Notes under the pieces: model-generated | The model's database searches: none | What the model was told of the DNA's origin: nothing | What the model saw: only the letters and a program-made list of their open reading frames with translations | Made by a program: the position numbers and the translations under genes | Shown here: positions 60,746-63,391 of the stretch, one piece after another | Layout: each line of letters starts with the position of its first letter | Numbering within the stretch: the stretch's first letter is position 1 | Assembly: GCF_003334305.1 (NCBI RefSeq) | Contig: NZ_QOWS01000001.1 | From: Escherichia coli | Lineage (GTDB): Bacteria; Pseudomonadota; Gammaproteobacteria; Enterobacterales; Enterobacteriaceae | Length of the DNA: 64,000 bases | Strand: one strand, 5' to 3'

Positions 60746-61834
60746 TCACGGCAGGCGGTGGCGGGCTTGATAATAAGCCTGCCAGTGAGCTTCTTTATGT
60801 GTGGCGACTCGTTGTTCGAAGTAACGGCGCAGACGAGCGCGATCTTCTTCGTTATCTTTGACGATGGTTCCGGCAATGCAGTCCACCAGGTCGGCTGGCT
60901 CACCTGCGCGATTCGCTAAAAACCAGGCGCGGACGCCTACGGCGTGGGCCACGTTCACGGCTTCAGCGGTGGACATAATCGCTGTTAGTGTATCCATTGA
61001 CGTTTTCTTTTCGCCGTTGGCACGCAGATCGCGGAAGGTGCGGACCAGTAACTCCAGTACCGCGTCAGGCACTTTATGCGGAATACCGCTATGGGCCAGC
61101 AAACGCGCCGAAGCACTGGCGACAAGCTCCAGCTCCTGGGCGAAATCCATAATCGGAAAGACAGTTTCAAAATCGAAGCGACGCTTTAGCGCAGCACTCA
61201 TTTCATTGACGCCGCGATCTCGGGTATTGGCAGTGGCAATAATATTAAAGCCTTCTCGCGCATAGAGCTGACTGGCTTCACCAGTGAGTTCCGGCACCGT
61301 CATCACCCTGTCAGAAAGCATACCTAACAGACAGTCTTGCACTTCCAGCGGTGTACGCGTTATCTCTTCAAAACGGACGATTTTGCCGTCGCGCATTCCC
61401 TGGTAAAGCGGGGCAGGGACCAGCGCTTCCGTTGATGGACCATGATTGATAAGCAGGGCGTAGTTCCAGCCGTACTTGATTTGATCTTCGGTAGTAGATG
61501 CGCCGCCCTGGATGGTTAACCCGGCATCGCCGCTAATAGCGGTTGCCAGTAATTCAGACAGGAGAGATTTTGCGGTGCCAGGTTCCCCCACCAACATCAA
61601 ACCGCGCCCGGTGGCAAGAGTGACTAACATGCGTTCGACAGCGGAGGGACTAATCACCACTTTACGGCTAATATTTTGCGCGCTATCGCCAAGGATAAAA
61701 GCACGGGCCGCAGGCAAACTTAACTGCCAACCGGGCGGGCAAGGAGCGTTATCATTTTGTTTTAATTTTGCCAGTTCATCGGCGTATAACACAGCAGCAG
61801 GCGGACGCTGCAGATGATTATTCTGCGGTGACAT
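60746..61834 (-). CDS. yehL: MoxR-like AAA+ ATPase YehL, 362 aa
   Basis: ORF 60746..61915; start at 61834 (MSPQNNHLQRPPAA); Walker A GEPGTAKS. Confidence 0.9.
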   Translation of the reverse strand: MSPQNNHLQRPPAAVLYADELAKLKQNDNAPCPPGWQLSLPAARAFILGDSAQNISRKVVISPSAVERMLVTLATGRGLMLVGEPGTAKSLLSELLATAISGDAGLTIQGGASTTEDQIKYGWNYALLINHGPSTEALVPAPLYQGMRDGKIVRFEEITRTPLEVQDCLLGMLSDRVMTVPELTGEASQLYAREGFNIIATANTRDRGVNEMSAALKRRFDFETVFPIMDFAQELELVASASARLLAHSGIPHKVPDAVLELLVRTFRDLRANGEKKTSMDTLTAIMSTAEAVNVAHAVGVRAWFLANRAGEPADLVDCIAGTIVKDNEEDRARLRRYFEQRVATHKEAHWQAYYQARHRLP

Positions 61835-61944
61835 ATATTCATCCCTGAAATGTATTAATGAAATAAACGATATTTTACGCGCAATAAATGTTTGGCGCAT
61901 TAGTTGTTTGAGCAAAAAATATCTGGAAAGCAGATCGCAGTAAA

Positions 61945-62028
61945 TAAAAAAACCTGCTGGTGAGGCAGGTTCTTTTATTTACTATTTTCAGGCCTAACAC
62001 CACAGCCTGTGCAACATCGTGTTCCAAC
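61945..62028 (-). ncRNA. Candidate antisense sRNA antitoxin (OrzO/OrzP-type), about 84 nt
   Basis: Minus-strand TTGCAA-17 bp-TATAAT promoter (-10 at plus 62035-62040); predicted 5' end near 62028; strong terminator (AACCTGC-loop-GCAGGTT then TTTTT on minus); first ~20 nt complementary to the toxin leader at 62175-62194. Confidence 0.6.
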
Positions 62029-62034
62029 GAACGA

Positions 62035-62085
62035 ATTATAACCACGGCTGGACCCCGTTGCAATTAAGATAATGAGATTTATAAT
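62035..62085. promoter_or_regulatory. Back-to-back sigma70-like promoters sharing one palindromic -35 hexamer (toxin mRNA rightward, antisense sRNA leftward)
   Basis: Shared TTGCAA at 62058-62063; plus-strand TATAAT at 62080-62085 (16-bp spacer); minus-strand TATAAT at 62035-62040 (17-bp spacer). Confidence 0.55.
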
Positions 62086-62266
62086 CCAGACCGTTGGGAC
62101 GTTGCGCCGGATCGAACCTATTTCAAGTCCTGGCTACCGGACGGGGGGTGCTGCAGGTGGTGCCCTGATCCGGAGTGCAACATCGTGGTCCAACATACGT
62201 AAACCAGTATCGACAGGCAGTGTAAGGGTAAGGTGCTGGTGTTGCGCTCCTTAATAAGGAGAGCGG

Positions 62267-62356
62267 ATGGACTCGCTGACACAAAAGTTAACCGTGCTCA
62301 TTGCTGTACTGGAGCTATTAGTGGCTCTGTTACGGTTGATTGATTTGTTGAAGTAA
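62267..62356 (+). CDS. zorO/zorP: 29-aa hydrophobic peptide, type I toxin candidate (ZorO/ZorP-type)
   Basis: ATG 62267, AAGGAG 5 nt upstream; MDSLTQKLTVLIAVLELLVALLRLIDLLK, one predicted TM helix with charged ends; about 174-nt leader from the predicted start near 62093. Family name is from memory; which copy is zorO and which zorP is not resolved. Confidence 0.75.
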   Translation: MDSLTQKLTVLIAVLELLVALLRLIDLLK

Positions 62357-62377
62357 CGGGCAAATTGAAACGCATCT

Positions 62378-62402
62378 AAGGGGGAAAACCGCTTCCCCCT
62401 TT
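62378..62402 (+). terminator. Terminator hairpin of toxin mRNA copy 1
   Basis: AAGGGGGAA-aaccgc-TTCCCCCTT perfect 9-bp stem 22 nt after the stop; short U-tract. Confidence 0.5.
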
Positions 62403-62554
62403 AATAAAATGATTACTGTTTTTATTAATTCATCATATAACTCATTTTTATTTATAAATTCATCGATTTTATATTCAACGCACCATTTGACCGGGATGTG
62501 AATATTTATGTTGGGCTATTGGCAAAAAATATCTGGAAAGTAGATCGCAGAAAA

Positions 62555-62636
62555 TAAAAAAACCTGCTGGTGAGGCAGGTTCTTTTATTTACTACAGTGA
62601 CGCTAACTTGCTGATTGTGCAACATTTCGTACCAAC
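62555..62636 (-). ncRNA. Candidate antisense sRNA antitoxin, copy 2 (OrzO/OrzP-type), about 82 nt
   Basis: Minus-strand -10 TATAAT at plus 62643-62648 and shared -35 TTGCAA at 62666-62671; terminator 62561-62581 with U-tract; 5' region complementary to the copy-2 leader at 62783-62802. Confidence 0.6.
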
Positions 62637-62642
62637 GAATAA

Positions 62643-62693
62643 ATTATAACCATATCCACACTCCATTGCAATTCAGTGAGTGAGATTTATAAT
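62643..62693. promoter_or_regulatory. Back-to-back promoters of copy 2 sharing a palindromic -35
   Basis: TTGCAA at 62666-62671; plus-strand TATAAT 62688-62693; minus-strand TATAAT at plus 62643-62648. Confidence 0.5.
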
Positions 62694-62874
62694 CCTGCCC
62701 GTTGGGAGGTTGTGCCGGATCGGACCAATTTTAAGTCCTGGCTGCCGGACGGGTGGTGCCGCAGGCGGTGCCCTGATCCGGAGAGCAACGTTTCGTACCA
62801 ACATACGTAAACCAGTATCAACAGGCAGTGTAAGGGTAAGGTGCTGGTGTTGCGCTCCTTAATAAGGAGAGCGG

Positions 62875-62964
62875 ATGGACACGCTGACACAAAAGTTAAC
62901 CGTGCTCATTGCCGTACTGGAGTTATTAGTGGCTCTGTTACGGTTGATTGATTTGTTGAAGTAA
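62875..62964 (+). CDS. zorO/zorP: 29-aa hydrophobic peptide, type I toxin candidate copy 2 (ZorO/ZorP-type)
   Basis: ATG 62875 with AAGGAG upstream; MDTLTQKLTVLIAVLELLVALLRLIDLLK, differing from copy 1 only at residue 3 (S to T). Confidence 0.75.
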   Translation: MDTLTQKLTVLIAVLELLVALLRLIDLLK

Positions 62965-62985
62965 CGGGCAAATTGAAACGCATCT

Positions 62986-63010
62986 AAGGGGGAATACCGT
63001 TTCCCCCTTT
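62986..63010 (+). terminator. Terminator hairpin of toxin mRNA copy 2
   Basis: AAGGGGGAA-taccgt-TTCCCCCTT stem. Confidence 0.5.
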
Positions 63011-63018
63011 AAGAAAGC

Positions 63019-63073
63019 TATACTCGTCATACTTCAAGTTGCATGTGCTGCGACTTTAATTATCTAGAGTATA
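63019..63073. repeat. Truncated ERIC-like element abutting the yehK 3' end
   Basis: TATACTCGTCATACTTCAAGTTGCATGTGCTGCG ... AATTATCTAGAGTATA: ERIC terminal arms with the central part missing. Confidence 0.55.
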
Positions 63074-63391
63074 TTATTCTATTTCTTGGTTGAATATATT
63101 CTGTAGTTCACGATTAAAAATTGCTATTACAGTTTCAGGTGATTCACCTCGTAATTTCCGCTCATCAATACACTCATCTCTTATATAAATCAACGCATCA
63201 TTTATTAGCGGGTCAGCATCTTCTCGATCACGTTGATGAAATGTTGGATGTAGCCGGAATCGCTCCAGTCGATAGACGGAACCTGTAAATAATTCAGAGC
63301 ATTTATGGATCTCAAGTCTGAAGGAAAACGGATCTTCAGGTACAGGGACCTCATAATCGTAAATAGCAACTAGCTCTTTTTGCACGATCAT
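63074..63391 (-). CDS. yehK: Uncharacterised protein YehK, 105 aa
   Basis: 105-aa ORF (MIVQKELVAIYDYEVPVPEDPF...) between yehI and the repeat island. Confidence 0.85.
   Translation of the reverse strand: MIVQKELVAIYDYEVPVPEDPFSFRLEIHKCSELFTGSVYRLERFRLHPTFHQRDREDADPLINDALIYIRDECIDERKLRGESPETVIAIFNRELQNIFNQEIE

Follow-up and report, generated by a model that had tools for sequence, protein, structure and literature searches.

The 20-nucleotide match between a divergent small RNA and a toxin mRNA leader in Escherichia coli is the published OrzP/zorP pairing site

A 20-nt segment at the predicted 5′ end of a minus-strand small RNA (sRNA) recurs, almost unchanged, in the leader of a divergently transcribed toxin gene, which raises the question of whether the two RNAs pair as antitoxin and target and whether such a pair is new. 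Within the window, which is the whole 64-kb stretch of DNA analysed here, GTGCAACATCGTGTTCCAAC (62009-62028) and GTGCAACATCGTGGTCCAAC (62175-62194) are identical at 19 of 20 positions, as the original prediction had claimed, and differ only at 62022, a T, which corresponds to a G at 62188. A search of both strands of the window allowing up to three mismatches returned these two sites only. Dinucleotide-preserving shuffles give 0.02 expected matches, and none of 100 shuffles contained two. With so low an expectation and no other site in the window, the match is real rather than a product of chance. It is the published pairing site between OrzP and the zorP leader and thus constitutes a rediscovery, not a new finding; the zor-orz duplicated type I toxin-antitoxin locus of E. 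coli, to which it belongs, is already known (Fozo 2010; Wen 2014, 2017).

The locus comprises two tandem copies of one unit at 61930-63010, located 608-610 bp apart and presenting 87% identity over 300 nt. Copy 1 combines GUUGGAAC-ACG at the sRNA 5′ end (+1 at 62028) with an MDS... peptide, features that identify it as zorP/orzP and not zorO/orzO, while copy 2, with GUUGGUAC-GAA and an MDT... peptide, is assigned to zorO/orzO on the same sequence grounds. The open reading frames (ORFs) on either side of the locus match yehL and yehK, and homologous RefSeq loci are annotated likewise. In E. coli O157:H7 EDL933, Z3289 and Z3290 were located yehI-yehL (Fozo 2010, PMC2887945) and were later renamed zorO and zorP, their divergent sRNAs becoming orzO and orzP (Wen 2014, PMC3919570). 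All the sequence-testable defining features of the zor-orz family were found in the locus. The features of the two copies are as follows (EAP, "exposed after processing" region; RBS, ribosome-binding site).

61945..62028, minus strand: orzP sRNA, ~84 nt, with its 5′ end at 62028 and a terminator hairpin and U-run ending near 61945
62009..62028, minus strand: OrzP 5′-terminal pairing domain GUUGGAACACGAUGUUGCAC, which includes V1
62020..62018, minus strand: V1 specificity region, +9 to +11, ACG, as defined in Wen 2014
62035..62063, minus strand: orzP promoter, -35 TTGCAA at 62063..62058, 17-nt spacer, -10 TATAAT at 62040..62035, 6 nt to 62028
62058..62085, plus strand: zorP promoter, -35 TTGCAA at 62058-62063, 16-nt spacer, -10 TATAAT at 62080-62085
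62093..62106, plus strand: zorP mRNA 5′ end (+1 to +14), predicted cis partner of +84 to +102 in the minimum-free-energy fold
62093..62266, plus strand: zorP 5′ UTR, 174 nt, with the RBS AAGGAG at 62256-62261 (+164 to +169)
[quoted passage not shown]
62267..62356, plus strand: zorP toxin ORF, 29 aa, MDSLTQKLTVLIAVLELLVALLRLIDLLK, a T3S variant of ZorO
62378..62401, plus strand: likely zorP terminator hairpin, AAGGGGGAAAACCGCTTCCCCCTT
62555..62964: copy 2, zorO/orzO, with the sRNA at 62636..62555 (minus strand; V1 GAA), the leader site at 62783-62802 and the ORF at 62875-62964 (plus strand)

The zor-orz unit is widespread, as megablast located it in 5232 of 5426 complete E. coli genomes, chromosomal except in four places, and most of the records listed carry no annotated feature beneath it. 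Aligned with the O157:H7 strain MB41-1, the 1081-bp two-copy locus displays six substitutions and one single-base indel, excluding alignment-end overhang; none of these differences falls in the pairing sites, which are identical in both copies. Among the genomes fetched, the RefSeq features under the match were "none" or an adjoining hypothetical protein, leaving the zor ORFs and orz sRNAs unannotated, and no NCBIfam model was found for the 29-aa peptides or ZorO. Because both a RefSeq gene and an NCBIfam model are lacking, the locus would escape screens based on annotation. The AT-rich spacer between the copies (62402-62520) contains a short near-repeat, TTTATTAATTCATC / TTTATAAATTCATC, 30 nt apart.

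The Rfam model OrzO-P (RF02083, "RNA antitoxin"; gathering score 60) matches the minus strand of both copies, with scores of 99.9 bits for copy 1 and 88.8 bits for copy 2. This match, the Zor peptides and the yehL-yehK position all support the earlier proposal of an OrzO-type divergent antitoxin that acts by 5′-terminal pairing. In copy 1 the match spans 62021..61946, so that the model begins 7 nt inside the transcript, and an Rfam-based annotation, starting at 62021, leaves the pairing domain short of its first 7 nt. The sRNA 5′ end at 62028, as placed by the original prediction, is supported by the TTGCAA-17-TATAAT promoter and by published numbering: V1 (+9 to +11) reads ACG in OrzP but GAA in OrzO (Wen 2014, PMC3919570), and this numbering works only if +1 of OrzP is 62028. 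The predicted OrzP fold ends in a terminal 13-bp hairpin followed by U7, and the published length of sRNA-2/OrzP is ~85 nt (Fozo 2010, PMC2887945). The terminator hairpins of the two orz genes (61939-61983 and 62549-62593) have 19-nt arms that are 95% and 89% complementary, respectively. As the hairpin is symmetric, flanked by an A-run and, on the opposite side, a T-run, the orz terminator is also called on the plus strand. It lies ~110 nt upstream of the likely yehL start (an ATG near 61834, by sequence reading), which is on the same strand as orzP; read-through from orzP would thus enter yehL downstream. Sub-threshold Rfam matches to the Thr and Trp leaders, STnc370, isrH and CrcZ were rejected, as they fall on the terminator hairpin or the AT-rich spacer and score below gathering.

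Each copy contains one palindromic TTGCAA (62058-62063 and 62666-62671), which constitutes the -35 of both divergent sigma-70-like promoters, the spacer being 17 nt in the orz direction and 16 nt in the zor direction, such that two RNA polymerases may compete for a single site. Over 2,439 full zor/orz loci, this orz -35 is present in 99.4% and this -10 in 99.8% (PMC11264685). The orzP start at 62028 and the zorP start at 62093 are each 32.5 nt from the centre of the common -35. The latter position, 7 nt past the plus-strand -10, was assigned as zorP +1 because the published arrangement, a 174-nt UTR with the RBS at +164 to +169, fits exactly from there; in zorO the leader of this length and RBS position also contains the EAP region at +73 to +102 (Wen 2017, PMC5397157). 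ZorP is defined as T3S relative to ZorO (PMC11264685), and Z3290 is toxic on overproduction (Fozo 2010, PMC2887945). The copy 2 ORF (62875-62964, plus strand) also has 29 codons and encodes MDTLTQKL.... The zorP transcript is predicted to be ~313 nt, and ~285 nt post-processing, in agreement with the published zorO transcripts of ~310 and ~280 nt. All four RNAs, the two sRNAs and the two mRNAs, have been detected, and primer extension has located their 5′ ends (Fozo 2010, PMC2887945). A 60-codon ORF across the leader (62072-62254) was dismissed, as it begins upstream of the mRNA start.

The leader site ends 72 nt before the ATG, close to the ~75 nt first estimated, and ~60 nt before the RBS; the complementary site was published as lying 72-92 nt upstream (Fozo 2010, PMC2887945). 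Pairing between OrzP and zorP comprises 6 bp, an A:G mismatch at sRNA +7 and 13 bp, a 6(1)13 arrangement of 19 pairs that bears out the original description of ~19 nt with one mismatch. The OrzO:zorO duplex is composed of 12 bp, a U:G wobble and 5 bp, and its 18 pairs match the published "18 nt". Published work puts the minimum for repression at 15 continuous pairs, or at 17 discontinuous pairs with one internal mismatch (Wen 2014, PMC3919570). Copy 1 has 19 pairs, within the published range, and copy 2 has 18 including one G:U. Since its 13 continuous bp are fewer than the 15 shown to be sufficient, OrzP:zorP has to qualify under the minimum of 17 discontinuous pairs, a limit established with OrzO mutants; the engineered OrzO 6(1)11, with the mismatch position of native OrzP:zorP, represses fully.

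Energy calculations were consistent with this geometry. The first 20 nt of OrzP hybridize with zorP mRNA at -30.8 to -32.7 kcal/mol; the latter value is the outcome of the duplex prediction initially proposed as a check. The energy of 1000 shuffles of the 20-mer was -16.0 +/- 2.4 kcal/mol, and none reached -32.7. After subtraction of the opening costs, the net energies were -14.6 to -19.1 kcal/mol for cognate pairs and -2.5 to -9.2 kcal/mol for cross pairs, and the low cross-pair values agree with the published failure of OrzP to repress zorO (Wen 2014, PMC3919570). These figures derive from 20-nt hybrid energies combined with opening energies, which replaced a comparison of the whole sRNA with the whole mRNA by RNAduplex; the latter was rejected since it ignores intramolecular structure and returned unrealistic duplexes of 70-100 nt.

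Covariation was analysed over ten loci from E. coli together with three further species of Escherichia, which fall into four allele classes defined by the sRNA 5′ end together with the leader site. Across these classes 95% of cells are paired, and five of the 20 pair positions (sRNA +5, +6, +9, +10 and +11) have changed on both sides, an extent reached by 2 of 500 shuffles; in slid registers pairing drops to 26-40%. Covariation over four rows is modest in number and clear in pattern, and it agrees with the 99.8% of 2,439 loci in which repressive pairing potential is kept (PMC11264685). A species-representative scan with the RBS-hairpin 26-mer retrieved three further Escherichia species only, Escherichia whittamii among them; the P-type and O-type site pairs recur in these, so that no allele class was added. 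The P-type A:G mismatch at +7 (62022 / 62188) is unchanged in O157:H7, E. whittamii and at least one further Escherichia species (L001, L012 and L013). Of the four allele classes, only the O type has a paired sRNA +7, and the other three do not.

Further allele classes were observed in other E. coli loci (L003 986, L004 988, L005 1000, L007 692 and L002 1597). They include a Q-like pair, with the sRNA beginning GTTGAGATGCC... and the leader carrying ...CATGGCGACTCAAC; a single-copy variant in strain 04-00955 (L007), whose sRNA 5′ end is GTTGGGGCGCC... and whose leader is Q-like; and, in L002, a third copy that is orz-only, with a Q-type 5′ end and without a toxin. E. coli BL21(DE3) (L009 702) is an orphan orzP locus, which retains the P-type sRNA gene and its promoter without the leader site or toxin ORF. 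This state matches the published "orz-only" condition (OrzPmg in MG1655), and in ~30% of E. coli genomes an orzP-like gene persists although zor is absent (PMC11264685). Because these genomes keep the antitoxin gene without zor, OrzP may serve other functions as well.

The sister pair has been dissected experimentally. Grafted onto unrelated sRNAs, the first 18 nt of OrzO are sufficient to repress zorO; an OrzO V1 swap abolishes repression, and compensatory target mutations restore it (Wen 2014, PMC3919570). Repression of zorO by OrzO requires RNase III and does not require Hfq. [quoted passage not shown]

In the locus studied here, minimum-free-energy folds predict that the mRNA 5′ end pairs with the target region in both copies, 62093-62106 with 62176-62194 in copy 1 and 62701-62713 with 62785-62802 in copy 2. 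The predicted cis pairing uses the invariant flanks CCAAC and GCAAC only, and the V1 target is consequently located in an internal loop. When the first 28 nt are removed, +96 to +102 are freed in the predicted fold. This modelled cis occlusion is consistent with published probing, in which +73 to +102 opens only once 28 nt are removed.

Taken as a whole, zorP/orzP is very probably a pairing module like zorO/orzO, with repression exerted through the sRNA 5′ end. Divergent sigma-70 promoters with one palindromic -35 drive OrzP on the minus strand and zorP mRNA on the plus strand, the latter comprising a 174-nt leader and a 29-codon membrane-toxin ORF. By analogy with zorO/orzO, the full-length zorP mRNA would be poorly translated owing to an RBS held in a stem, and its own 5′ end would also cover +84 to +102, as the predicted fold suggests. 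Loss of the first 28 nt would expose +73 to +102 and promote translation, probably through a ribosome standby site. OrzP, bound to the 3′ part of the EAP, would prevent ribosomes from loading and bring about decay that depends on RNase III, thus keeping the toxin off, while the variable mid-duplex bases, V1 and its neighbours, would make each sRNA specific to its own toxin mRNA. Repression of zorP by OrzP in this strain presumably follows the zorO/orzO route; no direct test of OrzP repressing zorP was found in the literature searched, and repression at this pair is thus a prediction.

Several other explanations of the match were considered. The two 20-mers could represent a DNA-level direct repeat that arose by duplication or gene conversion and has no RNA-pairing function. 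Both lie in direct orientation on one strand, at a distance of 166 bp, within a unit that is itself tandemly duplicated, and gene conversion between direct repeats would also give correlated changes. Nevertheless, their likeness is limited to exactly 20 nt from the sRNA start, with flanks that differ, and the correlated changes keep pairing, including G:U, rather than identity, as the O type has an A in one copy and a G in the other, leading to U:G. As breaking and restoring the zorO/orzO pairing by mutation abolishes and restores repression (Wen 2014, PMC3919570), a repeat devoid of pairing function is extremely improbable. It is also highly improbable that the sRNA starts further downstream, e.g. 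at 62021, which would reduce the pairing to ~13 nt, too few by the published rules. Such a start could be read from the RF02083 alignment, which covers 62021..61946 only, but the beginning of a family model does not map a 5′ end; the -10 TATAAT (62040..62035) places the start 6-7 nt on, at 62028-62029, and the primer-extension numbering (V1 ACG/GAA; 5(1)12 and 6(1)11) fits a start at 62028 only.

The leader site might instead be kept mainly as a cis element, as partner of the mRNA 5′ end, as a standby site or as both, with little contribution from the sRNA. The cis pairing predicted for both copies, between +1 to +14 and +84 to +102, points in this direction, as does the capacity of the EAP region to promote translation independently of the sRNA (Wen 2017, PMC5397157). 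The cis pairing is limited to the invariant flanks, however, and changes in the variable middle track those of the sRNA, not those of the mRNA 5′ end. Published work also established in vivo repression of zorO by OrzO as well as inhibition of zorO translation, and the published model unites the cis and trans roles, so that a predominantly cis function is very unlikely. That the main task of OrzP is something other than zorP control, e.g. another trans target, with the leader match being secondary, is unlikely as well. In its favour, the orzP-like gene found in ~30% of E. coli genomes without zor is expressed in MG1655, where its sequence is 100% identical (PMC11264685), and BL21 (L009) has a P-type 5′ end without a leader site. 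Against it, 99.8% of the loci in which zor is present keep repressive pairing potential (PMC11264685), sRNA and leader co-vary over the allele classes, and orphan antitoxins are the remnant expected once the toxin is lost. Another target would in any case be compatible with, and not exclusive of, control of zorP through the leader site.

The sRNA 5′ end, GUUGGAAC..GUUGC, resembles the mRNA 5′ end, GUUGGGAC..GUUGC. Support for this likeness is weak, as it was equalled by 63 of 1000 and 21 of 1000 shuffles. When the divergent promoter unit was tested as an inverted repeat, the copy 2 arms beat 500 of 500 shuffles and those of copy 1 were ~2 sd above the mean. Given this statistical weakness, the inverted-repeat and 5′-end likeness was rejected as a claim and is retained only as a remark. 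The conserved +7 mismatch, the alike 5′ ends, the predicted occupation of the Orz site by the mRNA 5′ end through the invariant flanks and the symmetry of the two starts about the palindromic -35 suggest a tentative and rather doubtful scenario, in which the imperfection of the P-type duplex has been selected, the antitoxin arose as an inverted copy of the toxin promoter and 5′ end, and one 20-nt site is contested by a cis lock, a trans lock and a standby ribosome, while the +7 bulge adjusts the off-rate or the cleavage by RNase III.

As a discovery, the result is minor: papers from 2010 to 2024 had already described the zor-orz locus and its two sRNAs, mapped the 5′ ends of the latter, identified the complementary site and worked out how the sister pair operates. 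It nonetheless reveals that a type I antitoxin of the trans-pairing kind can be recovered by reading the raw sequence, with the sRNA 5′ end correctly placed.

The closest known system is zorP/orzP (Z3290/sRNA-2) of O157:H7 EDL933, which occupies the same yehL-yehK position and encodes the same 29-aa peptide as copy 1. Nothing relevant differs between the two, and the sRNA 5′ end and leader site are base-for-base identical to those of the O157:H7 genome. The sister pair zorO/orzO (Z3289/sRNA-1) displays the same architecture, promoters, 174-nt leader and site at +83 to +102, and its toxin differs by one residue. The two pairs diverge in the middle of the duplex, where V1 is GAA in OrzO and ACG in OrzP and +6 is U and A, respectively; the A:G mismatch at +7 of OrzP:zorP contrasts with the 18 pairs, including one U:G wobble, of OrzO:zorO. 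No Rfam match to IstR or OhsC was found at E <= 1 over 61800-63100. The locus nevertheless resembles tisB/istR-1, in which the 5′ end of a divergent sRNA pairs far upstream of a sequestered RBS, a standby site is exposed after 5′ processing and RNase III cleaves the duplex. The tisB gene is under LexA/SOS control. Similarities extend to shoB/ohsC and dinQ/agrB, which are likewise divergent and use short pairing in the toxin 5′ UTR distal to the RBS (Wen 2017, PMC5397157), while they belong to other families and encode other toxins. Judged from its sequence, the locus is thus one that is predicted to work like tisB/istR-1 and shoB/ohsC but is not a member of those families.
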